Virus record (IMG/VR): IMGVR_UViG_3300042337_000191 | Length of the DNA stretch: 64,000 nucleotides | Strand: one strand, 5' to 3' | Source: an uncultured virus (IMG/VR IMGVR_UViG_3300042337_000191) | Lineage: Duplodnaviria > Heunggongvirae > Uroviricota > Caudoviricetes | Shown here: piece after piece, positions 1,979 to 60,341 of the stretch | Layout of the letters: each line of letters begins with the position of its first letter | How positions within the stretch are numbered: the first letter of the stretch is position 1 | Program-made: the position numbers and the translations under genes | The notes under the pieces: model-generated | Database searches by the model: none | The model's input: the letters and a program-made list of their open reading frames with translations, nothing else | What the model was told of the DNA's origin: nothing

Positions 1979-4900
1979 TATTCAACCTCTTCTAATTTAA
2001 ATTTGAATTTTTTACCATTTTTATTATTTATAATGAAAAGCTCAGTTTCGCCTTCTTGGATAGTCCAATTACCAGTAGTTCCATCAATATCATTACCTCT
2101 AGTTCTTTCGTTAGAAAGATGTAAGTCGCCCGTAAATACGTTGGCCCATCTTAATGTTGCGGAACCTAGATTATAAGCGTTATCAGAACCTGGCATCACA
2201 TTACCACCAACGACCAATTTATCTGCTGGTGTTGTGTTCCCGATACCTACGTTTCCTGATCCAAGAATTCGCATTGCTTCCGATGTATTATTAACAGCAA
2301 AACAAATAGCATCCCCAGAGGTTCCGGAGGCAACCACATTTCTGATAGTAACACCAGCAAAAGTTCCACCATTGTCATAACCAAACAATGCGCCGTAACT
2401 GCCGTTTCTATTGACTGCAAAATAAGACAAACCAGTATTTGATGAAGTACTAATTTGAACTGGTAGAGCTGAGTCTGCTATCGAGCCTGCACCAATAGAA
2501 AGTTTTGATTGTGGAGAAGAAGTTGCAATACCAACATTACCATTAGCAACAATATATGCTGCAGTTCCAAAAGTAGATGTATTAGTAGAAACCACTAAAG
2601 ATACAGTGTTTGTTAATGTTGAATTAGCGGTAAATGCAGTGCCTACTGTATGACTAGCAGCATTAATAATACCAGTGTAAACACCAGTTGAGTTGGCTAT
2701 TGTAGAAGTTCCAACAGTAAGACTGGCTGCGTTCATAGTTCCAGTATGATACACACCAGTAGCATTAGCAATAAGAGATGTACCTACTGTATGAGATGAT
2801 CCATTAACAACTCCAGTATATACCGGAAGATAAGCAGCGATATTCGCATTCAACGTAGAATTGAGCTGATAAGAAGCTGCTGCAGTTCCGCCAAGATTGG
2901 TTGAGTTATTGGAAGTTAATGCGCTGTTGACATTTAACGAACCTTCTGTTTTACCATAAGGACCAGTAGAGTTACCGATAAGAGTAGAACCAACATAATA
3001 TGTTACTGCGTTAACTACTGTAGCATTGGCAGTAAAAGCAGTTCCTACTGTATGACTAGCAGCGTTTACGGTTCCAGTATGATACATACCACCAATATTA
3101 GCAACCAACCAATTTGTAGAAGTATTACCAAGATATAGAGTATTAGCTTGGAAATTGGCTAGTTGAAAAGTAGTATTTGTAGTATCAATGTTAACATTAG
3201 CATCTGGTTCTGGTTTATATCCATCAAAAACTTTCCAGATACCATCAGAAGCATCTCGGAAAATACCAGAATGGGCGTAACCCAAAGAATTACCAGTAGT
3301 ATTATAGTTACCAACTATACCGAGATCTTCGTTGTCTACTGTATTATTTGAATTTAGATAGATAAAGTTATCAACAATAGATAATGTGTTCGAACCAATA
3401 ACATTAACATTACCAGAAATAGAAAGACTTCCAGTAAGAGTCAAACTACTAAAAGAAACGTTATCAGTTGTTCTAACGTTTTGATCCATACGATAAGGAA
3501 GTCTAGCCTCAGCTAAAGTTCCAGTATTAATATTAGATGCGTTTGAAGCAAATACTGTAGCATTAGAATAAGCAGTAGCTGCATTACCAGTAATTGCAGA
3601 ATTAGCTGTTGCTATTTTGCCATCTGTATATGATACAGAGTTCGAATAAGCAGTAGCAGCATTACCTGTTATGGCCGAATTGGCAGTGGCAATTTTACCA
3701 TCAACATACGAAACAGCATTAGAATACGCAGAAACAGCGGCAGATTGCGCTGACGCTGCTCTAGTATTAGCATCTATTGCCCTATCATAAGCATTCTTAA
3801 CAGTATTCGCTACAGGAATATATGTAATAGATGTGTTTGTTACAGAATCTAATTTGAGACCATCAACATAAGAAACAGCATTGGTATAAGCAGTAGCTGC
3901 GTTACCTGTGATCCATGACGATACATTCGCAACAGTAGCAGAAGAATTACCAAGATAAGTTGCTGTGTTTGACGTTAACGCATTATTAACATTTAAATTG
4001 CTTTCGGTTTTACCATAAGGACCGGTAGTATTACCAATTAAGGTCGTTCCTGCATAGTATGATACTGCATTAACTACAGTAGAGTTAGCGGTAAAGGCAG
4101 TCCCTACTGTGTGTGATGCAGCGTTAACAATTGATGCGTCTAGCTTGCCAGTGCTTGGAACGTAATACAACTTAGTTGTTGATACAACTGCGTTTGTCCA
4201 AGCGCCAGAAGAAGCATTTGAAAGACCAATATAGAAAGTCTGAGTGTCTGTATTATTAGCGTTTAATGTAGCGCCAGCAGTAGCCCAATAAGTAGCAGAA
4301 CCGTTTGAAAGTAAAGACTGTCCTGCAGAACCGTAAGAACCGTTTGCTGATATACCAGAGGAACCTAATACGATATTAGCATTAAAAGTGGTCACACCAG
4401 ATAAAGTAAACGATCCAGTTGTATTAACAACATTATTTCCTAACTGAGCGTATGGTAAAGTTCCAGTAGTAATATTAGTTGCATCAGTATAATAAGAAGG
4501 CAAATTGCCACCAAAATATGAAGAATTATTAGCCGTTCCAGTAAAAGAAGTAGAGTTTATAGAAACATTTACAGTGCTATTACCGACATATATTGGTAAT
4601 CTTGTAAACGTGCCAGCATATCCAGTTTCTAAATATGAATTTCCTGTCCAACCGAATACAATACCTTCTAAATTTGAATTTGCTGCAATAATATCAAGAG
4701 AATTGTTTGTATAGTAATATTTTGTAGTGGCTCCTGTATTACGACCAATTTTCCAATTTTGGTCAGATGCTCCACCAAATAATATTGAACCCGTATTAGA
4801 AACGACAGAAATATTATTACCAGTAAACGCTACGTTTGACTGGAAAGTATGAATATTAGACCAAGTGAAATTATACCCAGTATTAACAGAAAGAGTTCCA

Positions 4901-9461: not shown

Positions 9462-12400
9462 TAGACTACCGTTCTAGTATACTTAACTGTTGTTGCTGAT
9501 AATGCTGGTGTAAACTGTAGTATAATATGTGTAGAATTTTGAGTCGCTGAAAATACACCAACGTTACTATTTGAAGTGATAGATGCATACTCAGTAATCT
9601 GAGAAGCTGAACCATCGTGCATAACGAGAACTTTAGACACATATTTATTATTAGCAACATTATCTGAAACGCTGATGAGATATTCTGAACCTAGATATGA
9701 ACCAATCAAGAAGCTGTCGATATTCTGAGCAGTTGTTCCAGAAGTTGTAACAGATCCGTTTGAGACATTTACTAGAGATTGAATATATGTAGAGTTAGCA
9801 AACACACCAGATGAGTTAGAAATAATACCAGTGTTAGCTAATACGGCTAGAGATCTTGTTGAAGATATATCTCCACCACCACTCAGACCATTTCCTGCTG
9901 TAATAGAAACTGCAGTATGATCAATATGTCTATTAACTGCATAGTTGCTAAGGCTATTATGGTCAATCTTAGTTTGATCGATCCATAGACCAGTTGTATT
10001 AGAAATTAACTGATTGTTGCCAGCAAGAACATTAATGCCAGAAGATGTGACTGAAATACCGTTGGCGGCTGCTGCAGCGATAGCATCAGCAGAAACTGAA
10101 ATACCATTACCTTGGCCAATATCGAATGTTCTAGAGGCTGCTATAGTTCCGCCGCCAGTAAGACCATTACCAGCAGTTAATGTTACTGTGGTGTGATCAA
10201 TATGTTCGTTACCAACGAAGTTTGCTAGCGAATCGTGGTTTATTGTTCCCTGAGTTGCAGTTAGAACAGTACCATATAGGCTGTTAGCAGTTATTGTAGA
10301 ACTTACAGTTGAATTTGCTGTAATATTAACAACAGTAGAATTTGCTACGAAAGCGCCACCAGTTCCATAAGGAACGAGATATGCTTGAAGAGTTCCTGTT
10401 CCTGAATTTGCAGAAGTGTCAACTGTTGTAGCTGTATTTGGGTTGGTGTTAGAAACAAACAACCAGAAATAAGGATTGCTGTTTGAAGACTTAGCAGCTT
10501 GACGAACTAAACCTGAATACCAAATTTTGCTAGTATTACCAGCTGGTGAATACCAGCCAATATCAACAGTATCAGTTGTTATATTATTATCAGCTAGTTC
10601 AATGATATTGTCATTTACCATTAATGTGGCAGTATTAACAGATACGACTGTTCCGCCAACAACTAGGTTACCACTAAATGTAGCATTTCTAAGACTGATA
10701 TCAGCGCCAGAACCGCTTAGAGTGGTACCAATACCCAATACAACATTAGAGTTAAGAGTTGTTGTTGTAGCAGTAACTGTTAAATTAGAACTGATACTTG
10801 TATTGGTTCCGGATATTACTAGATTAGCACCAGTGTGACTGATGTTAGAAGCAATAGTAAAATTAGCGCCATTTACAATAAGATTAGATGAAACTACAGT
10901 ATTAGGCGAAGCAATAAGAGTATTACCGCCAGCAACATTCAAACTAGCACCAAACAGACCCCATCTATTTGTTGCATTACCTAGATTATAACCGTTACCC
11001 TGAGGAATGATATTTCCTGCAGCATTACCAGTATAACTCAAAGTACCGCTTACAGACAAATCGCCAGTAACTTCAAGCAAACCATCAACGATAGTTTTGT
11101 AAGTAGAATTACCAGATCCGAATATAGTGTTACCATTAATTACAGTGTCACCATCTACTCTTAGTTTTGTAACTGGTGATGAATTACCAATACCAATATT
11201 ACCATTGGCAATAATATAAGCTGCAGTTCCAAAAGTAGATGTATTTGTTTGAACATTTAGTGCATAAACATTTGCTAATGTAGAATTAGCAGTAAATCTT
11301 GTTGTAGAAAGAGTAGCAGCATTAACAGTTCCAGTAGCATAAACACCGGAAGTGTTTGCATTTGTATTACCAAGAGCATCTGTAACTGATAGTAAAGTGC
11401 TTGAAACTGAAGCATTTACTGAAGAATTACCTACAAACAATGAAGAACTATTTGCAATTACGTTAGCGCCAACAGAAACAGCAATAGTGTTTACTGTAGA
11501 AATACCAGCATTCAAACCTATAGGAGATATATTGGCTGTAGCTGAACTATTTGCTATCTTCAACAAAGAAGAATTGGCCACAGCATTTACTGTTGAATTG
11601 CCAACAGTAAACCCACTAGTGGTTACTGAGACGTTTGCGCCAGCATTGAAGAATCCGTTGGATATTGCTGATAGACCTATAGTCAAGCTTGATGAGTTTA
11701 AGTTAGCTGATCCTGAAGAATTAGCTAATTGCAATAATGTTGAAGTAAGAACAGAGTTTGTGCTTGAATTGCCTACATAAACCGCAGTAGTATTAGCAAT
11801 TACGTTAGCTCCGGCTGCAATAACAGTAGAGTTAACCACTGAAGTGCCAATTCTAAGGTCTATAGGAGTTAGATTGGAAGTTCCTGTTGAATTGGCTACC
11901 TGAATTAAAGTAGAATTACTGATAGAATTGACAGTAGAATTACCAACAAAATATGTTGAAGAATTTACAACAACATTAGCGCCAACAGTAATATTAGTAT
12001 TTGATAGAGTAGAAATACCAATAGCTATTGATGTTGGAGTTAAATTAGCAATACCACTAGAATTGGAAACTTGATGTAGAGTTGAATTTGATACGCTATT
12101 TACACTAGAATTACCTACGAAAAATGTAGTAGTGTTTACTGTGACATTAGCACCAACAGTAACATTAGTGTTTGATACAGTAGAAACTCCAATAGCAAGA
12201 CTTGTTGGAATTAAATTAGCTGTGCCTGAAGAATTTGCTACTTGAATTAAAGTGGAATTACTAATAGAATTTACTGAAGAATTACCAACAAAATATGTTG
12301 TAGCATTAACAATTACGTTTGCTCCAACCAATACTGAAGTATTGTTGAGTTCTGAAATACCAATTTTAATTGATGTAGGATTTAAGTTTGCTATTCCGGA

Positions 12401-13711
12401 ACTATTAGCAATTTTTAGTAGAGAAGAATTTGCAACAGTGTTAACAGATGAATTACCAATAGTAACAACTGAAGTGTTAACAACTACATTAGATCCAACA
12501 GTAATAGCAGAAGTATTAGCTACTAATCCACCGGCGCCAGTTGTGATAATTGTGCTGTTAACAAGAGAAGTACCTATTGTAAGGTTTACTGGTGTTAGAT
12601 TTGCAGTCCCAGAAGAATTAGACATCTGAGTCATTGTAGAATTCACAGTAGCATTTACTGAAGAATTACCTACAAACAACGTTGAAGAATTTGCAATAAC
12701 GTTTGAACCAATTAATACTGAAGTATTATTAAGAACAGAGATACCTATAGAAACGGCTGTAGGAGTAAGATTAGCAATTCCTGTGCTGTTTGCAATCTTC
12801 AATAAAGAAGAATTTGCAACTGTATTTACAGTCGAATTACCAATGGTAGCAACTGAAGTGTTAACAACTACGTTTGAACCTACTGTTATAGCGGTAGTGT
12901 TTGCGACCAAACCGCCAGCGCCAGTTGTAATGATTGTGCTATTGACGATTGAAGTGCCAATCTTAAGATCAACAGGAGTTAGATTAGCTGTGCCAGAAGA
13001 ATTTGACATCTGAACCATTGTCGAGTTGACAGTGGAGTTAACAGATGAATTTCCGACCAATAAAGTCGAAGTGTTCGCATAAACGTTCGCACCAATAACA
13101 ATGGTGGAAGAATTTATTACGGGAGTCCCAGTAACTGTTGGGAACGACATCGATGTGCTGTTGACTACTACGTTTCCAATAGTTAAAGAATTGTATGTTA
13201 AATTGGAATTAACATTATTATTTGAAACTTTGAAATTAGCAGAAGTTAAAACAGTGTTAACAATGTCATTGCTCTGAATATAAATGGTAGCTTTATTTAA
13301 AACAAGATTACCATTGATATCGCCAACATATAAAGCTGAAGTGTTGATAGCAACATTATCATTAACTAAAACATTATTAGCTCTAATAGAAGATGGCGTT
13401 ATGTATGTATTACAAGTATTATTACCCAAGGTAAGGGCTGTAGTATTTGTTACGAAATAGTGATCTTCGCTGGCAGTATTAATTGTGGATACGTTAACAG
13501 TAATAACACTGTTAGTATAAACGTTAGCAGCTGTTAAACTATTTGCAGAAAATCTACCAGAAATTGCAGCATTACCAGCAGTTTGAGCAGAAGCCAAATT
13601 TGCTGTCGTTGTAATTACACAATTCGACATTAACGTTGCAAGTTCGTTTGTTCTGCCACGCCAATATTCGAATGTGTTATTTAATTCCGTATTTGCTACA
13701 TTAATTGTCAT
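9461..13711 (-). CDS. Long tail fibre-like protein with internal repeats (1416 aa)
   Basis: NTFEYWR..TN N-terminus, about ten ~60-aa repeats, C-terminal globular domain. Confidence 0.75.
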   Translation of the reverse strand: MTINVANTELNNTFEYWRGRTNELATLMSNCVITTTANLASAQTAGNAAISGRFSANSLTAANVYTNSVITVNVSTINTASEDHYFVTNTTALTLGNNTCNTYITPSSIRANNVLVNDNVAINTSALYVGDINGNLVLNKATIYIQSNDIVNTVLTSANFKVSNNNVNSNLTYNSLTIGNVVVNSTSMSFPTVTGTPVINSSTIVIGANVYANTSTLLVGNSSVNSTVNSTMVQMSNSSGTANLTPVDLKIGTSIVNSTIITTGAGGLVANTTAITVGSNVVVNTSVATIGNSTVNTVANSSLLKIANSTGIANLTPTAVSIGISVLNNTSVLIGSNVIANSSTLFVGNSSVNATVNSTMTQMSNSSGTANLTPVNLTIGTSLVNSTIITTGAGGLVANTSAITVGSNVVVNTSVVTIGNSSVNTVANSSLLKIANSSGIANLNPTSIKIGISELNNTSVLVGANVIVNATTYFVGNSSVNSISNSTLIQVANSSGTANLIPTSLAIGVSTVSNTNVTVGANVTVNTTTFFVGNSSVNSVSNSTLHQVSNSSGIANLTPTSIAIGISTLSNTNITVGANVVVNSSTYFVGNSTVNSISNSTLIQVANSTGTSNLTPIDLRIGTSVVNSTVIAAGANVIANTTAVYVGNSSTNSVLTSTLLQLANSSGSANLNSSSLTIGLSAISNGFFNAGANVSVTTSGFTVGNSTVNAVANSSLLKIANSSATANISPIGLNAGISTVNTIAVSVGANVIANSSSLFVGNSSVNASVSSTLLSVTDALGNTNANTSGVYATGTVNAATLSTTRFTANSTLANVYALNVQTNTSTFGTAAYIIANGNIGIGNSSPVTKLRVDGDTVINGNTIFGSGNSTYKTIVDGLLEVTGDLSVSGTLSYTGNAAGNIIPQGNGYNLGNATNRWGLFGASLNVAGGNTLIASPNTVVSSNLIVNGANFTIASNISHTGANLVISGTNTSISSNLTVTATTTTLNSNVVLGIGTTLSGSGADISLRNATFSGNLVVGGTVVSVNTATLMVNDNIIELADNNITTDTVDIGWYSPAGNTSKIWYSGLVRQAAKSSNSNPYFWLFVSNTNPNTATTVDTSANSGTGTLQAYLVPYGTGGAFVANSTVVNITANSTVSSTITANSLYGTVLTATQGTINHDSLANFVGNEHIDHTTVTLTAGNGLTGGGTIAASRTFDIGQGNGISVSADAIAAAAANGISVTSSGINVLAGNNQLISNTTGLWIDQTKIDHNSLSNYAVNRHIDHTAVSITAGNGLSGGGDISSTRSLAVLANTGIISNSSGVFANSTYIQSLVNVSNGSVTTSGTTAQNIDSFLIGSYLGSEYLISVSDNVANNKYVSKVLVMHDGSASQITEYASITSNSNVGVFSATQNSTHIILQFTPALSATTVKYTRTVV
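11400..13100 (-). repeat. About 10 imperfect ~60-aa coding repeats (GxNV..N.S..[VI]GNS[ST]VN...ANSSG.ANL.P)
   Basis: Ten [VI]GNS[ST] anchors counted in the translation; boundaries approximate. Confidence 0.75.
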
Positions 13712-53353: not shown

Positions 53354-53527
53354 TTACCACTCTCTATACTGTCGAGCTCGAGCCTGACGATACTCATCCA
53401 GACACCATTGGTCTAGCTCTCGTACCTCTAGGTCGTAGGTCTGTTGGTCAATGATACCACGGCTGAGCTCTCGGTCGAGCCTGTCCATGGTCCGTTCGGC
53501 GATACGTTCGATTTGGTCCTCGGTCAT
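53354..53527 (-). CDS. Hypothetical protein
   Basis: MTEDQIERIAERTMDRLD..L..G...Q..YD. Confidence 0.55.
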   Translation of the reverse strand: MTEDQIERIAERTMDRLDRELSRGIIDQQTYDLEVRELDQWCLDEYRQARARQYREW

Positions 53528-53820: not shown

Positions 53821-54032
53821 CACACTTCCTCCCCGACACCATCGTATCCGTCATAGATACGGTTCAGTTCTACCTTACGGATCTCGATCCACTCGCAGTC
53901 GTTTCCAACCGCATGCTTGGCCTTATAGGACACTTCGAACTCACGAGCCTTCACGTAGTCGGAGAACACGCCCAACAACTCCATGCCCTCATACTGGACA
54001 CCGTACATCACGACGTAGACTTCCATGATCAA
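53820..54032 (-). CDS. Hypothetical protein
   Basis: VYVV....YEG..LLGVFS motif; behind a promoter and GAGGAGG. Confidence 0.6.
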   Translation of the reverse strand: MIMEVYVVMYGVQYEGMELLGVFSDYVKAREFEVSYKAKHAVGNDCEWIEIRKVELNRIYDGYDGVGEEV

Positions 54033-54173
54033 TCCTCCTCATCAACCTATATTCTTACTCTACGCCCATTCTGGATAAAAGTAAAGCTGAGACTGTGCTG
54101 TAACGTCAACTTTTTTTAAAAATAATGCCTGGACGAACCTAGAGCTCCGCAGAGACAATGATCCGCCCAGGAC

Positions 54174-54202
54174 TTGACTTTTAGGTGATAAAATGGTATA
54201 CT
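54174..54202 (+). promoter_or_regulatory. Sigma70-like promoter with no downstream + strand ORF
   Basis: TTGACT-17-TATACT. Confidence 0.6.
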
Positions 54203-54309
54203 TAGAAATTGTCTAACAGTGGGATGGACTATCAGCTCTCGACGTCCCAGTCACTGACAATCCATCCCACACTCAGAACCGCTGGAGCAAGGGCCAGGGC
54301 CGTGAGATC

Positions 54310-54825
54310 TTAGACTAATGCCTTGACAGCATCAACCGTCAGGAACGTCGGAGCCTTGAAGGACTCAAGATCATTCGTGACAGCATCAACATAAGCACGA
54401 GCCTCATCGGCATCGAAGTTCTCGACACCAGTGGCCTTCGGCTCGGCATACTGGCCCTTGGCATACTTACGGCCAACAGCCTTCAGACGAGCAAGGTTCT
54501 TCGCACGAATGTCGGCGATTTCCTCGGCAGTCTTGGTCTTACCGAGCTTGGCCTTCTCGGCCTGTTCCTTATCGCCAGCAACACGAGGAGCCGGAACCTT
54601 CTGGATCTTGCTCTTCGGAGCCTTAGCAGCCTTCGGAGCAGCAGAACGAGTAGCCTTCTCGACAGTGCCGAGCGACGGATCAGCCTTCACACGGAGAGCA
54701 TACGCTGCACGAGCGTTCTTCTCGGTCCAACCGAACTCTGCCTGGAGCAACGGCAGGACATCAGCCATCGCCTTACCAGCGTTTTCCTTCATAATGCGAA
54801 TCACGATTTCAGTCTTCGTAGCCAT
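54310..54825 (-). CDS. Basic Ala/Lys-rich early protein, possibly DNA-binding
   Basis: Helical N-terminal domain, AAPKAAKAPKSK linker, strong RBS and strongly biased codon use. Confidence 0.65.
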   Translation of the reverse strand: MATKTEIVIRIMKENAGKAMADVLPLLQAEFGWTEKNARAAYALRVKADPSLGTVEKATRSAAPKAAKAPKSKIQKVPAPRVAGDKEQAEKAKLGKTKTAEEIADIRAKNLARLKAVGRKYAKGQYAEPKATGVENFDADEARAYVDAVTNDLESFKAPTFLTVDAVKALV

Positions 54826-55476
54826 CTTCAGATCTCCTTCATCAACCTATATACGTATTCTACCCCAGATTTCGATATTCGTAAAGCCCCAAAAGTCAAA
54901 TTTCTGAAGAAAAATGACTTTACCGTTCCAGATCAATAGCTTGTCAACGAAACATGATCCTCTACGTCATAGCCATAGAATTCAGGGAATTCCTGGAAGT
55001 ACTCGAGGTAGGACTTGACTGCTACCCGAGATATGTTATAATAGGCTCTGTCAAAGCCATCGAAATAGAGGATCAGATTGAATGAACGAATCATTGGATC
55101 ACCTCGAGGATCTGAACCAGAACAATGAATACAGCCAAGCCAACGGTCATCAGTCCGAGGCCAATTACGTTCTGCATATCTTGGGTTCTCATCAGCAGTT
55201 CTCCTTTCAACCTTACATATATGATTATACCCAGTTTCGGAAAATTCGTCAAGCGAAAAATGACTCTCTCGGCAACTTTTTTTGAGCTTGGTCTGTGCTG
55301 TAAGGAACACCTGCCCCGCCCAATACCACTCCCTAGAGTATACTCCATTTTTGAGAAAAAGGCAAGCTAGGCTGTAGGGCTACCGCTAAAATAAATTTGC
55401 TCGTTACAGCACAGTCTCAGCTTGCCTTATAAGGGGATCAGCGGTAATATAATAATGGTAACTGAAGGAGAAACTC

Positions 55477-55698
55477 ATGAAAGCGATTTATTTTCCCTTT
55501 AAAGGTTCAAATAATTGGGCTTTTATTAATTCGTGGGTTAATTCATGCGGCCCAATTGGGGTTATATATTATGGGGAAAATGAAATGATGATCCCGGTAT
55601 TAGCGACCGAATTAAATACCTATAATAAAAAGCCTTTAGATTTTTATAAAAATTCGCCTAAGTTTAATAAACGACGGGGGTATAATGCCCCTTATTAA
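55477..55698 (+). CDS. Hypothetical early protein
   Basis: Behind a TTGCCT promoter at 55422 and AAGGAG. Confidence 0.55.
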   Translation: MKAIYFPFKGSNNWAFINSWVNSCGPIGVIYYGENEMMIPVLATELNTYNKKPLDFYKNSPKFNKRRGYNAPY

Positions 55699-55837
55699 TA
55701 ATTAAAAAAACTTAGTAATTCTTGGCTAATTGTTAATGCTCTTGGTTGTGTGTGGGTTTATAATAAGTTCAACAACCAAGAGCACCAACACGCATTAGCA
55801 CGCATTAGCAAGCATATACGCCTCGAATAGCGCAGAG

Positions 55838-55866
55838 ATAAAAAAAAGGGGATTTTTTATACCCCT
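55838..55866 (-). terminator. Intrinsic terminator
   Basis: AGGGG-loop-CCCCT followed by a T-run on -. Confidence 0.6.
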
Positions 55867-55884
55867 AAATATATTCCCTTATTA

Positions 55885-56085
55885 TTATTCTTTAATCTCT
55901 AGGTATTCCCTATATTTCTCTCTTAGGAGTTGCCTATCCTCTATTAACATATGGGTTAGCGTTCCCATTAAATCATATTCCCTTCGGTATTCTTTTAATT
56001 GGCGTAATTGGTAGTATCTTAGGTATAACTGGCCTATTATTGATTCTATTTCTAATTCTATATCCTCTACGGTTTTATTTTCCAT
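55885..56085 (-). CDS. Hypothetical protein
   Basis: 66-aa ORF in a short - strand operon. Confidence 0.5.
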   Translation of the reverse strand: MENKTVEDIELEIESIIGQLYLRYYQLRQLKEYRREYDLMGTLTHMLIEDRQLLREKYREYLEIKE

Positions 56086-56218
56086 TAAACCATTCCTTTC
56101 GCATTTCGCCTATTATATTAATAAACCATTCAGGACCGAATATTAATACGCCTATTGCTAGTAATATAGAGCCGAATGATAGTATTAGACGGGCGGCGAT
56201 ATTTGATAGTAGTTTCAT
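56075..56218 (-). CDS. Small membrane protein (47 aa, not in ORF track)
   Basis: MKLLSNIAARLILSFGSILLAIGVLIFGPEWFINIIGEMRKEWFNGK. Confidence 0.45.
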   Translation of the reverse strand: MKLLSNIAARLILSFGSILLAIGVLIFGPEWFINIIGEMRKEWFNGK

Positions 56219-56219
56219 T

Positions 56220-56402
56220 TTATTCCCCCTCAATCTTAATATTCTTCCAATCCGGGAGTAATTCGAATAATACGCCTTTAATTTCTTTTAATACTCTACC
56301 CTCTACTATTTCCTCTACTCTGTATATTTGATTATGATTATAATAAGCGGCGATTAATCTATAATAATTACCGTTCTTCTCTTTGATGATTCGCTTAGTC
56401 AT
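56220..56402 (-). CDS. Hypothetical protein
   Basis: AGGAG RBS; behind a TTGCCT promoter. Confidence 0.5.
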   Translation of the reverse strand: MTKRIIKEKNGNYYRLIAAYYNHNQIYRVEEIVEGRVLKEIKGVLFELLPDWKNIKIEGE

Positions 56403-56520
56403 TTCGTTTTCTCCTACTATTCCTATTCTACGCCTTTCCGGAAAAAAGGCAAGCGCTGACTCTGCTGTAAGGCCAAGAAATTATTTTAAAAAAAATGACC
56501 CCATATGGTCTAGCTGGCGC

Positions 56521-56548
56521 TTGCCTTTTTCGGCGAAACGGGTATACT
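56521..56548 (+). promoter_or_regulatory. Early sigma70-like promoter
   Basis: TTGCCT-16-TATACT; divergent partner near 56425-56452. Confidence 0.65.
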
Positions 56549-56577
56549 AAGAATATGGTTGATTGAAAGGAACTGAT

Positions 56578-56811
56578 ATGACTACGTTTACCTACCCGAC
56601 TCAAGCTGAACTGTTGATCCTTATTGCTAAGACCGAGTTTAAGCCGTTCGATAAAATGGATTGGGACGCCTTTGCGGGTTGTGAAAGCGATAATCCGTTT
56701 ATCGGCTATTCCGACGAGTTTACTATCGTTCTTGACGGTCATCTTATTAATATTATTCATTCCGAAGATAGCTATGGCGGTCAGTTATTTGAATTGAATA
56801 AACTGGCCTAA
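56578..56811 (+). CDS. Hypothetical protein
   Basis: F...DW.AFAGCE...P motif; start at ATG after AAGGA. Confidence 0.6.
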   Translation: MTTFTYPTQAELLILIAKTEFKPFDKMDWDAFAGCESDNPFIGYSDEFTIVLDGHLINIIHSEDSYGGQLFELNKLA

Positions 56812-56848
56812 TATAGTATAATATTAATATAATAAGAGGAGAGTTAAT

Positions 56849-57100
56849 ATGGATAATATTAACGAGAATTGGCTTATCCGCACCGACGAAATGGCCTATA
56901 AATTCGAACAGGGCGATCTAACCGTAGATAAGTTTACGGACGATCAATTAACCTATTTGATATACTGGAACTTCGGAGTTTCTGGTGTATCTATTATGAA
57001 AGAAACTAAACTCGCCGAAGAAGAATTAATTCGCCGAGGTAATCCCTATTCCGAGGATTACGCCGATGAATTAAATGCTAAGACGGAGGATTATCTATGA
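56849..57100 (+). CDS. Hypothetical protein
   Basis: AAGGAG RBS. Confidence 0.55.
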   Translation: MDNINENWLIRTDEMAYKFEQGDLTVDKFTDDQLTYLIYWNFGVSGVSIMKETKLAEEELIRRGNPYSEDYADELNAKTEDYL

Positions 57101-57315
57101 TTTATGATATATCTAAATGGTCGACCGAACAATTGGTTGACTTATTAAATCATTCAGGTTATAGTAGCGATGATATAGTTTCTTGTTACTATAAACAAAC
57201 GCTGTCCGAGGGTCATATAGTCTTTAATATAGACTACGAGAACCTAGATGGCGAATTAGAATCAGGTAATGTCTTTGTATTCATTCGCGATGGTAAACTG
57301 GTCGCTGAGTTCTAA
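57097..57315 (+). CDS. Hypothetical protein
   Basis: GGAGG RBS; ATGA coupling. Confidence 0.55.
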   Translation: MIYDISKWSTEQLVDLLNHSGYSSDDIVSCYYKQTLSEGHIVFNIDYENLDGELESGNVFVFIRDGKLVAEF

Positions 57316-57316
57316 G

Positions 57317-57370
57317 TTGGTCGCAGCGTAGGTCAGCGAGTTGGTCCTTCACTTGGTCAGGAGATAGGTC
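57317..57370 (+). repeat. 12-nt periodic array A (5 x TWGGT + 7 variable nt)
   Basis: Pentamers at 57317, 57329, 57341, 57353, 57365. Confidence 0.85.
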
Positions 57371-57676
57371 ATGTCTTTTAGAGTTACAAATAACTTCGCC
57401 GATGCGAATATGACTGGTCTGGTTGGTTATGTTAATACAACCTACGCAGATCTGGTCGAGGCGTTCGGTCAGCCCCAGCAAGGCGGCGATAAGACTAATT
57501 CAGAATGGATTATTAAGTTCTCTGACGGTCAGGTAGCGACTATCTATGACTGGAAAGAACCTATGACGCCGACCGATGATTATGACTGGCATATTGGCGG
57601 TAAACGCTCGGTCGTTGTTGAGCGTATTGCTAATATTCTAGGTGTCGGTAATAACTGTTGGTCGACCGATAGGTAA
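57371..57676 (+). CDS. Conserved phage hypothetical protein flanked by the two arrays
   Basis: TY..LV..FG.P....DK...EW...F.DG.VATIYDWK......WHIGG. Confidence 0.7.
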   Translation: MSFRVTNNFADANMTGLVGYVNTTYADLVEAFGQPQQGGDKTNSEWIIKFSDGQVATIYDWKEPMTPTDDYDWHIGGKRSVVVERIANILGVGNNCWSTDR

Positions 57677-57813
57677 TCACTTAGGTCAGACGATAGGTCA
57701 ACCCGCTGGTCATTAAGTTGGTCAGCGGGTTGGTATTGTCGTAGGTAACTGCGTAGGTAGGTCAGTTGGTCACATCATAGGTAAACCAGTAGGTGAGTCA
57801 GATGGTCAACAAA
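57658..57813 (+). repeat. 12-nt periodic array B (13 x NWGGT + 7 variable nt)
   Basis: A pentamer occurs every 12 nt from 57658 to 57802 without a break. Confidence 0.92.
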
Positions 57814-57868
57814 CATAATAGCGGCCAGCGCATAGATTAATCCGGCGAATAATCCTATTGCTAGGGGT

Positions 57869-58096
57869 TTACTCATCTTCCTCTCCCATATACTTGTCCC
57901 ATTCCGCCGCCGTAATTCCGCTCTTAATAAACTCTCTGGCGTCGGAGGACAACTCGGGGAATGCCTCTTGAATTAACTTCTCTCCTCGACGCCAAGCTAA
58001 TAGGCGTAACTCGAACTCGTCCTGATCATAGGCGGCAAACTCCATTGTATGCAGCTTGTTCGTGAATGGACTAGTCTTAGTAATTCTTGCTGTCAT
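57869..58096 (-). CDS. Conserved phage hypothetical protein
   Basis: W..G..IQ.AFP.LS.D.REFI.SGIT..EW. Confidence 0.65.
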   Translation of the reverse strand: MTARITKTSPFTNKLHTMEFAAYDQDEFELRLLAWRRGEKLIQEAFPELSSDAREFIKSGITAAEWDKYMGEEDE

Positions 58097-58099
58097 ATA

Positions 58100-58735
58100 T
58101 CACCTAAATGATGGTCCGGCAACCCACATAACCAAAGAGTTTCTTATTCCCTTTGTTACTGGTGTCACTTCGTGAATAGTAAATGATGGAAATAATAATA
58201 CAGAGCCTCTTGTTGGTCTAATCTTAAAATCACGTGCATAAGGAAAACGTAGCTCGCCTCCTTCAAACTCATCTGGGTCTGAAAGTAATACAGTCAATGA
58301 TAGCTTTCTTGCTATTGTATTATAATCTCTATCCGAGTGAGCAATATAATGCTGCTCATCGTTGCCGTTATATTCCAGGAATTGCATAGGCTCTACGGGA
58401 CCAGTCAAATCGAAATGAAAATGTCTTTGATTGGCCGTGACTACTACTTCTCTGATCCTCTCGATTACAAAAGCCAAATTCTCTTTTTGTTGTTCGGGCG
58501 ACGCCTGATAAACCGTGCAGTTTCTTACGCTCTTGTCAACATTTCCCTCGCCAACAGAAGAAACATTCGGCGTAGTGTTGTTCTTATAATAATCAATAAT
58601 ATCGTTACACTCTTTGGCGTCGAATACCTTATGATAAATTGCGAACTCTTCTATATTGTCTCGATGTACTCCGGGAATATCAAAAATACTAGGTATCTTG
58701 ATTTCATTTTGATCATCACCAGTATCAATAATCAT
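58100..58735 (-). CDS. 2OG-Fe(II) oxygenase (PKHD-type)
   Basis: H.D (HSD)...RKLS..V.LSDP..FEGGEL...FPS...HEVTPVTKG.R.SLV.W. Confidence 0.9.
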   Translation of the reverse strand: MIIDTGDDQNEIKIPSIFDIPGVHRDNIEEFAIYHKVFDAKECNDIIDYYKNNTTPNVSSVGEGNVDKSVRNCTVYQASPEQQKENLAFVIERIREVVVTANQRHFHFDLTGPVEPMQFLEYNGNDEQHYIAHSDRDYNTIARKLSLTVLLSDPDEFEGGELRFPYARDFKIRPTRGSVLLFPSFTIHEVTPVTKGIRNSLVMWVAGPSFR

Positions 58736-58738
58736 TTA

Positions 58739-59386
58739 TCACTCCGGAATTTTAGGATCTTTAATAGGCGGAAATGGTTTGGCTTTCCCAGTTTTGTTAG
58801 GAACAAAATTAAACCATCCTGTAAGAATATACTTCTCTTGCGTTGGAGATACTACACCACGATGGAAATGAGTCCAGTCGACTGGCCATATCATGGTCAA
58901 TCCCTTCTCTGGGCGTAGATTAATACGTTGATGATAGAATTGCGTTCCGCCTCGATCAGTAACGTCATTAAGATATGTCATAAACGCCAGATGACGAGAT
59001 ACTCCTGGCTCAACACAACTTAGACGTTCGGAATGCCAAATTTTAAATCCGCCACCCGGAGGATAATATTGAATATTTGGTGGGCTAAGAACATCTACAT
59101 CATCACCATACGCTGACAAAGGATATACCTTTTGATACTCATTCATTATGTCATGCAAATGAGCATAATACTCTTTTAGAATTGTATCGTCGCTTAAATG
59201 ACAATCAACGGAGTCTTTAATTGATTTGTTAACAACTCTCTGGCCAAACTCGTTATGAATAATTCCAGCACTCTTATCTGAGTTATTATTAAACCATTCA
59301 ATAACTCTATCGCAGAAACTGGTGTCTTTCATATACCATCCCAGGATGAAATTACCTGGGATTGGATTTAGTATATGTGATTTCAT
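58739..59386 (-). CDS. 2OG-Fe(II) oxygenase
   Basis: IQYY.PGGGF..WHSE; YLNDV..GGT.F; WP..WTH.HRG; KYI.TGW. Confidence 0.9.
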   Translation of the reverse strand: MKSHILNPIPGNFILGWYMKDTSFCDRVIEWFNNNSDKSAGIIHNEFGQRVVNKSIKDSVDCHLSDDTILKEYYAHLHDIMNEYQKVYPLSAYGDDVDVLSPPNIQYYPPGGGFKIWHSERLSCVEPGVSRHLAFMTYLNDVTDRGGTQFYHQRINLRPEKGLTMIWPVDWTHFHRGVVSPTQEKYILTGWFNFVPNKTGKAKPFPPIKDPKIPE

Positions 59387-59389
59387 CTA

Positions 59390-59608
59390 TTAACTCATGG
59401 AGTTAATAAGATCTTGGCGTATGTTATTTGTAATCTCTTCCATATCTTCGTCAAAGCCAACAGTAAAGCCTGACATAGTACGAACAAAGAAAACATATTT
59501 TGGAGACTCTAGATTATTTTCCTCGTTTGGTTCTACATACTGAACTGGGGAAACGAATTCAATATAAGCAGTATTAATTACACCAGAATTTGGACATCTG
59601 AAAAGCAT
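59390..59608 (-). CDS. Hypothetical protein
   Basis: AGGAG RBS. Confidence 0.5.
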   Translation of the reverse strand: MLFRCPNSGVINTAYIEFVSPVQYVEPNEENNLESPKYVFFVRTMSGFTVGFDEDMEEITNNIRQDLINSMS

Positions 59609-59655
59609 ACTATTCTCCTTGTTACTTTCAAGTCATATATGTATATAGTCGATTA

Positions 59656-59955
59656 TTATTCGTGGACTTCAAACACATGCCAAACGTGAATTGAACCCAT
59701 CATATTACGCCGCTGAACCGTTGCAACGTAATCATAATGCTTCTTTTCGTAATCATACATCTCGAAGCCAGTTCCGAACACATGAAATACGTATTTACGT
59801 TTTTCTCTCTTTGGGTTTACAATAGCCCAAATAACAGGAAAATTACCTTGAGCCTGAATTGTTAGGATCTTGGCGCCACGTGGCATCTCAATCTCGTATA
59901 CCGCATTGTGATGAATGTCGTCACCAAGCGGATACTTATAAATCATTTTCGTCAT
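59656..59955 (-). CDS. Conserved phage hypothetical protein
   Basis: IYKYPL...MP.GAKIL..Q.Q....WA.V....GTG...VWHVFE; start at MTKMIYK. Confidence 0.65.
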   Translation of the reverse strand: MTKMIYKYPLGDDIHHNAVYEIEMPRGAKILTIQAQGNFPVIWAIVNPKREKRKYVFHVFGTGFEMYDYEKKHYDYVATVQRRNMMGSIHVWHVFEVHE

Positions 59956-60341
59956 GCTGCCTCCATTACCTCTTGAACGTGGGAACAACTCTTCCGGTAG
60001 CCAAACCCCATGCAATTGCAGCGTAGAGAAATACCCCCATCGGCCAGACTAACAATATAAGACTTTCCATTTGATCGGGATGGGACAGAAATTGATATCG
60101 GATCAGGCAATTTAGAATTGCTTGAAACAGTCCAGCCACATATGATCCGGTCTTTATCCAAAACACGAAGTTCTGATTCATCGGTGCCAGTGTCCATCAT
60201 AAACTGATCTTCGGAAAGCCACTTGGGCTTGGGCGAAATAATCTCGCCCTCATACTCGTGATACTCTGGTATCTGCATATAGCTCGCATACGTATGCCGG
60301 AAACGATACATAGGGTTGCTGACACGAATTCGAAGGCGCAT
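59952..60341 (-). CDS. SWIM zinc-finger protein
   Basis: Y.V.......CNCMGFGYRKSCSH. Confidence 0.7.
   Translation of the reverse strand: MRLRIRVSNPMYRFRHTYASYMQIPEYHEYEGEIISPKPKWLSEDQFMMDTGTDESELRVLDKDRIICGWTVSSNSKLPDPISISVPSRSNGKSYIVSLADGGISLRCNCMGFGYRKSCSHVQEVMEAA

Follow-up and report, generated by a model that had tools for sequence, protein, structure and literature searches.

Phased 12-nt repeat arrays of a T4-like phage look like a new type of gene-shuffling linker

Why would a phage carry non-coding repeats, spaced at exactly 12 nucleotides (nt), before and after a single small gene? This question is raised by a 64,000-nt stretch of DNA from an uncultured virus (IMG/VR IMGVR_UViG_3300042337_000191), which we refer to as the window. 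On its + strand, array A (57317-57376) comprises five units of TWGGTC(N6) and forms the entire intercistronic leader of a 101-amino-acid (aa) gene (57371-57676, +), and array B (57658-57813) comprises 13 units and fills the convergent gap between this + strand operon and minus-strand genes. A preliminary description of the sequence had considered a centromere-like or iteron-like site, a packaging or replication signal, or an RNA scaffold or decoy; among these functions, a role at the RNA level fits our data best. Overall, the arrays look like a new type of gene-shuffling linker, not a centromere or a replication origin. We tentatively favor a reading in which they are transcribed linker modules, combining a portable translation start with a 3′ hairpin, and also act as recombination joints in the manner of the PeSL cassettes (promoter plus stem-loop modules) of T4-type phages.

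Array A consists, in order, of TTGGTCGCAGCG TAGGTCAGCGAG TTGGTCCTTCAC TTGGTCAGGAGA TAGGTCATGTCT. It occupies the 55-nt gap between the stop codon of a 72-aa gene (TAA, 57313-57315) and the ATG of the 101-aa gene (57371), and it contains the ribosome-binding site (RBS) of the latter, with the Shine-Dalgarno (SD) sequence AGGAGA at 57359-57364, as had been noticed earlier. The first 1.5 units of array B are the final codons and the TAA stop of the 101-aa gene, and its final three units are overlapped by a minus-strand open reading frame (ORF) of 33 aa. The two arrays are 341 nt apart and mutually out of phase. Their positions, unit numbers and exact 12-nt phase proved to be as first described, and no shuffled sequence approached them: the longest chain of GGT at an exact period of 12 was 13 in the window, and among 200 shuffled windows it was 1 in 1, 2 in 187 and 3 in 12. 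The other periods from 6 to 23 gave chains of 3 at most (period 24 gave 7, in the same array), and outside arrays A and B the + strand of the 64 kb contains no chain of at least 3. Tandem Repeats Finder returned only weak rows at the arrays because the units have little in common outside the core.

The preliminary description had proposed a 5-nt core with unrelated 7-nt spacers. A set of 79 units, 59 of them distinct, taken from the window plus five relatives gave a 7-nt consensus core, T-W-G-G-T-C-A. Only positions 8-10 were free, as the spacers had been supposed to be throughout; positions 11-12 avoided T and position 12 was mostly a purine, several spacers were conserved in relatives, and some were complementary to one another. 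The earlier listing of the array B units stood, except for the entry 'GEGTCAG', which should read GAGTCAG. Phased arrays were sought in relatives, designated here by L numbers, and were present in L002-5, L041, L044 and L112. Core and phase were retained in these relatives despite changed spacers, L112 having a 6-unit terminal array with wholly different spacers. Therefore, some constraint acts on spacing and core, in agreement with the selection on spacing that had been suggested.

Five T[AT]GGTC words also cluster on the + strand at 53400-53520, within a minus-strand 66-aa ORF; they are out of 12-nt phase and are probably unrelated to the arrays.

Could the period simply be that of codons? 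An ORF, decayed or cryptic, that encodes a repeat of four residues, such as [I/V]-G-[Q/H]-x in the frame of the GGT codon, would place the semi-free positions 2 and 8 at third codon positions and let position 12 (A/G) toggle between I and V, and array B has a single stop in the GGT frame and a single stop in one minus frame. However, stops occur in all six frames of array B (7, 5 and 1 on the + strand; 1, 3 and 8 on the minus strand), so the claim that the arrays are non-coding holds. The stop-bearing CATTAAG unit is conserved in five relatives, the GGT frame has neither a start codon nor an RBS, and the third position of the supposed Gly codon is invariant (79/79). Additionally, the frame relation to the upstream gene varies among relatives, and the arrays carry an RBS and start codons that serve other frames. 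This coding explanation, which had been named as the finding that would overturn the regulatory ones, is thus largely refuted, and we regard it as scarcely credible.

A 21-nt translation-initiation module in array A, TTGGTCAGGAGATAGGTCATG (57353-57373, +), is composed of a core, the SD, a second core and ATG, with the two cores 12 nt apart. Every leader array terminates in GGTCAGGAGATAGGTC followed by ATG or GTG, and GGAGATAGGTC plus a start codon stands before four unrelated genes (p101, as we call the 101-aa gene and its product, orf43, orf105 and orf96) in 8 instances from the window and four relatives. A variant of the module lies ahead of a 49-aa RMF-like gene in L044. This acidic gene (L044 3287-3436), which sits in the variable slot described below, has a weak match to Pfam RMF (E 5.9e-4; 20.3 bits against a cut-off of 27.9).

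The genes behind the module are exchanged among relatives. In six relatives, the slot behind p101 and ahead of the terminal array had five different contents: nothing (window, L041), orf43 plus orf105, orf105, the RMF-like gene, or orf96. In L002, orf43 is flanked by two module copies, TAGGTCAGGAGATAGGTCGTG and TAGGTCAGGAGATAGGTCATG; L005 has a single copy and lacks orf43. As judged from these sequences, the difference is the signature of a gene inserted or deleted through exchange between direct repeats. The arrays themselves vary by whole units. Array B of the window has 3 extra units compared with L041 and L044, between the CAGCGGG and CACATCA units, and of 4 lake runs with the 13-unit form, 3 also had contigs in which the 8-unit form is joined across these extra units. 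A metagenome variant, L351, has a 24-nt, two-unit deletion between two identical CATTAAG units, and the position of array A holds 5, 4, 3, 3 or 0 units in the relatives. Since the two cores of the module are 12 nt apart, a misaligned exchange would gain or lose exactly one unit. In the X9, X15, X20 and X24 runs over 56500-58500, lake unitigs broke at or near the arrays, and L041-type and L002-type forms of both leader and terminal arrays co-occurred within samples; the locus is thus a strain-variable spot in natural populations.

The close relative L001 keeps the genes without any array: TAATAGGAGAGCAATATG stands in place of array A, with a 15-nt spacer that carries a plain RBS (TAGGAGAGCAAT) ahead of the ATG, and where array B would be there is AAAAGCCCGGATCTCTCCGGGCTTTTT, with a canonical A-tract/stem/T-tract terminator. 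The idea that the arrays are an indispensable cis-site is therefore not supported.

At the operon's 3′ terminus, the 12-nt units appear to fold. UGGUCA is self-complementary as RNA only (U-A, G-C, G.U, U.G, C-G, A-U), and GGUC/CUGG, the one tandem-wobble context with a known stabilizing effect, contributes -4.12 kcal/mol in a prior parameter set (PMC9122537). The minimum free energy (MFE) of array B sense RNA was -63.4 kcal/mol, compared with -43.2 +/- 4.0 kcal/mol for shuffles (z -5.07). Six 3′-end arrays gave z values from -2.8 to -5.2 and six leader arrays from -1.0 to +1.5; when cores and phase were kept and only spacers were shuffled, the terminal arrays still reached z -2.0 to -3.9. Array A RNA was no more structured than shuffles (z +1.5 over its 60 nt; -0.55 over the 111 nt of 57290-57400).

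The predicted hairpin in array B (57689-57740, +) has a 15-bp stem (57698-57712/57719-57733), an outer 7-bp helix (57689-57695/57734-57740) and the loop UUAAGU, and its UGGUCA cores pair with one another by way of G.U wobbles. The order shared with relatives is core, ACCCGC, core, loop UUAAGU, core, GCGGGU, core, with up to 18 bp; stems in the 3′-end arrays measured 15-22 bp. Three unrelated hairpin sequences (the window type, L112 and L044_a1) all show core-core pairing together with complementary spacers. In five variants of the common hairpin, 96.7% of 90 cells were paired; L041 has a compensatory change from C-G to U-A (pair 9:34) and a change from C-G to U.G, and L005 has a change from A-U to G.U. 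A second both-sides change was scored, from U-A to A-U in the window, but it concerns the outermost pair (1:42) and may be fortuitous. In six variants with both arms, the sense strand was more stable than the antisense strand (-20.1 to -25.5 versus -10.6 to -19.4 kcal/mol). Over a 39-nt hairpin module (57696-57734), L002, L005 and L044 show 97-100% identity, compared with 68-88% over its flanks. With equal spacing on both arms, a fold-back brings the cores face to face, and this would account for the exact phase in the hairpins. Long-range pairing of A with B around the gene was also considered and rejected, as the duplex (-31.3 kcal/mol) was no better than that with shuffled A (-36.8 +/- 4.1 kcal/mol). 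Rfam 15 gave three chance-level rows over 54000-60000 (E 0.5-1), none of them within the arrays.

These structures also bear on whether the arrays are functionless scars, left by misaligned exchange between module cores that adds or removes units. The 12-nt repeat internal to the module, the orf43 indel between module copies, the L351 deletion between identical units and the range of 0-13 units among relatives would all follow from such a process, and units such as GGTCATTAAG are one base from the L041 start unit GGTCATGAAG. However, spacers are essentially random between paralogous units, yet no interior unit has lost its core and only one phase break occurs, although arrays were defined by GGT chains and their ends are therefore ascertained by core loss. 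The conservation of the hairpin module relative to its flanks and the structure of terminal arrays relative to spacer-shuffles argue in the same direction. We consider it quite unlikely that the arrays are by-products.

After analyzing these data, we propose a putative mechanism. Each swappable small gene would be preceded by a common module composed of a TWGGTC core, the SD AGGAGA, a TAGGTC core and a start codon, and the 12-nt distance between the two cores would set the period. Upstream copies of the unit would serve as an unstructured leader, whose cores may provide ribosome standby or a site for another factor. At the 3′ end of the operon, UGGUCA cores would pair with cores and spacers with spacers to give a hairpin of 18-22 bp, which may end or stabilize the transcript at the convergent junction. 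With a module at each gene boundary, recombination would insert, delete and swap genes and alter arrays by whole units.

Several results weigh against this mechanism. The leader arrays do not fold, so the fold-back argument leaves their cores and phase unexplained. The covariation is thin, as it comes from 5 sequences and the observed score was matched by 46 of 500 shuffles. The L351 hairpin lacks its 5′ arm and the variant nevertheless persists. No U-tract of the kind seen in intrinsic terminators follows the array hairpins, and no terminator-like site was found in the arrays by scan. The MFE structures of four transcripts contained 0 pairs between A and B. One step in the leader array of L112 is 10 nt. 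All arrays (window, L002-5, L041, L044 and L112) lie on the coding strand of the + operon, but all array loci share one ancestor, and their common orientation is therefore a single observation. Finally, the locus was present in 24 lake/freshwater runs, all of DNA, with no RNA run among them.

Some factor may read the phase of the leaders; candidates are the ribosome, a multimer on RNA and a protein that binds DNA. Stated more generally, the arrays may be a new periodic cis-element read in register, either by a multimeric factor that binds RNA or DNA as a ring or filament with one subunit per 12 nt and co-regulates the slot gene, or through self-zipping GGUC/CUGG RNA, whose hairpins would tolerate shifts of register and so persist when units are gained or lost; we regard this as possible but doubtful. 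If true, a standardized 'socket' would give any captured gene a uniform 3′ end and regulation as well as a uniform translation start. Recognition of the phase by a factor would represent a new periodic recognition system, and a purely RNA-structural element would be a natural example of a register-tolerant hairpin.

A more specific form of such recognition is a single-stranded RNA operator, in which a multimeric protein, arranged as a ring or cooperative filament with a subunit per 12 nt, would bind open UWGGUCA repeats, cover the SD and AUG, and co-repress the translation of cassette genes. The leader arrays overlap the SD and the start codon and are unstructured both against shuffles and against spacer-shuffles that keep core and phase (z up to +1.5 and +1.4, respectively), and arrays are restricted to the sense strand. 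The protein gp32 acts on the repeated, unstructured leader of T4 gene 32, and TRAP acts on phased triplets; both resemble the arrays in having a repeated motif, an unstructured leader over the RBS and an arrangement that suits cooperative or ring-shaped RNA binders, but their motifs and periods are unlike those described here. The neighboring proteins are acidic and offer no candidate, and terminal arrays without a downstream gene would require a second explanation. We consider an RNA operator unlikely.

The alternative at the DNA level is a lattice, in which a phage or host protein polymerizes head to tail on TWGGTCA every 12 bp and the array acts as an operator, roadblock, iteron or centromere-like site, by analogy with TubR on tubC, StbA on stbDR arrays or the T4 oriE repeats (all discussed below). 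A 7-nt core, strict 12-bp spacing and whole-unit changes are typical of such lattices; array sizes of 3-13 with several arrays per locus are compatible with them, and because leader arrays are unfolded as RNA, their cores must be under another constraint. However, the enclosed protein, which had been put forward as the binder, is a poor candidate. The p101 family is widespread in phages and unnamed (111 of 122 candidate IMG/VR stretches confirmed; 109 protein clusters), with no specific link to the arrays. Of the 80 loci kept from the 111 confirmed stretches, 72 lack any phased GGT chain, the chain in 2 is of an unrelated GGTG type, and only 6 have TWGGTC arrays (L002-L005, L041 and L044, of which L002-L004 are identical here); thus, the expected co-occurrence of arrays with this gene family did not materialize. 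The p101 pI is 4.55 and its neighbors are all acidic (pI 4.1-4.7). Its AlphaFold2 (AF2) model is an alpha/beta fold (pLDDT, the predicted local distance difference test score, 93.9), for which two PDB fold searches gave no match to helix-turn-helix (HTH), ribbon-helix-helix (RHH) or other DNA-binding repressor folds. The best PDB structure match was a mitoribosomal protein (Z 8.1); appendage-platform and TBP-like folds came next, their Z of 4-5.5 being in the range of common arrangements. PDB sequence searches with p101 and the 72-aa protein (p72) gave only E >= 0.39, and the Atlas matches of p101 were exclusively viral clusters of 'hypothetical protein'. Together, the acidic pI, the fold results and the 72 array-free loci led us to reject p101 as a specific array binder. 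In the window and the 80 loci, the invariant family residues are G33, K41, W46, I58, Y59, K62, P67, W73, H74, G76 and G77.

The tubC site bound by TubR, to which the arrays had been compared, consists of seven 12-bp direct repeats in two sets (10.1101/2022.04.29.490116), and the arrays share with it the 12-bp period, the direct repeats and the occurrence in two sets (here 5 + 13 units). In contrast to tubC, which precedes an operon, the present arrays lie between or after genes, they belong to a lytic, T4-like phage, L001 is array-free, and the spacers pair as RNA. The operators of StbA (stbDR, plasmid R388) stand before several genes and comprise 2, 3, 5 or 10 repeats (10.1101/2022.04.29.490116). 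They are similar in being direct-repeat arrays of variable unit number before several genes, but they differ in having 9-bp repeats with 2-bp spacers (an 11-bp period), in lying at promoters and in being bound by a known HTH protein. Neither the 12 neighboring ORFs nor 44 ORFs from 39-64 kb contained a Pfam family of the TubR (winged HTH), TubZ, Par, Rep, or other HTH/RHH type, and no StbA-like HTH protein was found among the scanned ORFs of this region; a Tub-, Par- or Rep-type system is therefore not encoded in the ORFs scanned.

Further features are difficult to reconcile with a DNA lattice. The arrays are intercistronic or 3′ and lie away from sigma-70-like sites, a crude consensus scan of 55000-60000 having placed no + strand promoter of this type within 57317-57376 or 57658-57813. 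L001 lives without arrays. A partition function would be unexpected in a lytic T4-like phage. The hairpin spacers are palindromic while the cores are direct repeats, an arrangement that makes sense only with G.U pairs and thus points to RNA. Taken together, we consider a double-stranded DNA lattice fairly unlikely.

A role of the opposite strand or in replication was also considered. The C-rich complement, with ACC every 12 nt, could load Rho, which covers about 12-13 nt per subunit, and so halt antisense or convergent transcription, or the G-rich transcript could form an R-loop that primes replication like T4 oriF/oriG. The sense strand is indeed richer in G than in C (47 versus 27 in array B; 20 versus 12 in array A), and the site is at a convergent junction. 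T4 origins are described as using R-loops and lying near switches of transcription direction (PMC3016281). However, YC dimers suffice for Rho, so a 7-nt core is not needed, and a strong hairpin would impede its loading. The same account reports direct repeats of 12 nt, set at regular intervals and of unexplained role, at T4 oriE (PMC3016281), which resemble the arrays in the type of phage, the 12-nt unit and the even spacing. In the T4 record AF158101, GTTRAAGGWRAT recurs every 24 nt at 79426-79570 (L105 5427-5570), inside gene 5 and next to the annotated oriE. As read from this record, the repeats appear to be V-(E/K)-G-N codons of the C-terminal octapeptide repeat of gp5, and they may therefore be a by-product of coding. 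In contrast, the arrays of the window are non-coding, have a period of 12, and lie outside the gene 5 homolog, about 18 kb from the baseplate-hub genes. The oriE repeats are thus a different object, and we judge an antisense or replication role to be very improbable.

The linker reading remains the one we favor, and its closest parallel is in gene shuffling. PeSL (promoter-early stem-loop) cassettes of T4-type phages are promoter and stem-loop modules that mediate modular shuffling (PMC2839356, PMC4122927). PeSLs and the arrays are both conserved non-coding modules of short length that separate small, non-essential genes in T4-like hyperplastic regions, and both combine expression signals and stem-loops with points at which relatives gain, lose or replace genes. 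A PeSL consists of a sigma-70-like promoter and a terminator stem-loop, whereas here 12-nt phased TWGGTCA arrays end in an SD/start module; the stem-loop occurs in 3′-end arrays only and lacks a U-tract, and there is one locus per genome compared with many for PeSLs. Relative to an intrinsic terminator, array B has the stem but not the U-run, and L001 has a canonical terminator at that place. The array element itself is therefore distinct from PeSL, although the shuffling behavior matches.

Hyperplastic regions are the sites where T4-like phages try new genes. To our knowledge, PeSLs are the only module type known for the capture, expression and loss of such genes. The present lineage appears to use another solution, a ribosome-binding linker with a 12-nt repeat together with a hairpin made of the same units. 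The 21-nt module is useful as a marker of cassette boundaries in freshwater phage metagenomes and is a candidate portable translation-initiation part.

Several other ideas were set aside by hand, none of which explained both the 7-nt core and the period: an SD-like AGGU 'handrail' for ribosomes, pairing of the tRNA CCA end with UGGU, T7-type primase sites (TGGTC), decoys for restriction, bacteriophage exclusion (BREX) or Chi-like recognition, and the RNA polymerase pause consensus.

Among the loci recovered, the arrays are confined to one lineage of freshwater T4-like phages. The array-bearing loci are those that share neighbor genes: homologs of the 82-, 83- and 72-aa genes upstream of p101 are syntenic in just L001-5, L041 and L044 (7/80 loci), as well as in L112, a further syntenic relative obtained by pattern scan. 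No opposite-strand chain was present in the 80 homolog loci. Five records of 64-136 kb gave 4, 4, 4, 5 and 6 matches, all in one locus, compared with 0, 0, 0, 0 and 1 for a reversed-pattern control. IMG/VR scans for four TWGGTC or four WGGTCA units returned, among the matches listed, mostly coding tandem repeats and hexamer arrays, and the only lineage members among them were L112 and L255. In bacterial and archaeal genomes, four TWGGTCA units occurred in at least 82 arrays in at least 80 loci; among the matches listed, 16 had diverse spacers, 13 of these 16 overlap open frames at least about 160 aa long and have the appearance of coding repeats, and none provided a host lead. The hairpin loop word GGTCATTAAGTTGGTCAG was found in 7 viral and 19 metagenome loci; 11 of the latter belong to the lineage (L350, L351, L353, L355-L359, L361, L363 and L366), and the other eight are chance occurrences. 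No public phage record matched 56500-58800, and the locus is absent from the nearest record, G001. In the literature on phage 12-bp/12-nt direct repeats, PeSL, oriE iterons and tubC, TWGGTCA arrays were not described.

The window is part of a T4-like myovirus from lake water, as T4-like because it encodes gp32, gp59, baseplate wedge and head-completion proteins and a late-transcription co-activator. The arrays sit in a hyperplastic region of this T4-type genome, among ORFs of 33-101 aa without known families, in a + strand gene run (82, 83, 72 and 101 aa; 56.5-57.7 kb) amid minus-strand genes. The three small acidic genes of 82, 83 and 72 aa (56563-57315, +; pI 4.1-4.2) precede p101 in the operon, and no Pfam or PHROG family was assigned to them. 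Beyond the operon, the 33-aa ORF (57775-57876, -), whose last codons enter array B, has one predicted hydrophobic helix, and comparable small hydrophobic ORFs occur at the matching position in L002, L005, L044 and L112. A 75-aa gene (57869-58096, -) that matches phrog_20898 follows. Just past the convergent junction, two adjacent paralogous genes for 2-oxoglutarate (2OG)-Fe(II) oxygenases (211 and 215 aa; phrog_61) occupy 58100-59386 on the minus strand.

Other periodic sequences were encountered during the searches. The unrelated GGTG chain of L076 and L077 (2128-2166) has four units at period 12 (CTGGTGGATTAG TTGGTGCTGGTG ...). It is located some 850 nt upstream of the 101-aa homolog and looks like a Gly-rich coding repeat. 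L049 and L050 carry a 22-nt tandem repeat with seven exact-phase copies (1438-1583), about 1.4 kb upstream of the 101-aa homolog. Dozens of unrelated IMG/VR contigs hold hexamer arrays of 48-204 nt, either (TNGGTC)n (L106, L115, L117, L122, L133, L143, L145, L155, L161 and L181) or (GGTCAN)n (L242, L253, L294 and L297), with GGTC fixed and one base free. These usually lie within same-strand ORFs of 60-115 aa and encode, in one frame, (Gly-Leu)n or (Gly-Gln/His)n. The free base then falls on the third position of a codon, and no other Gly codon ever takes the place of GGT. In the window itself, large imperfect tandem repeats with periods of 171, 384 and 78 nt were present at 11889-13051 and 3559-3738, and the 1416-aa and 1197-aa minus-strand ORFs that bear them are probably fiber-like structural genes.

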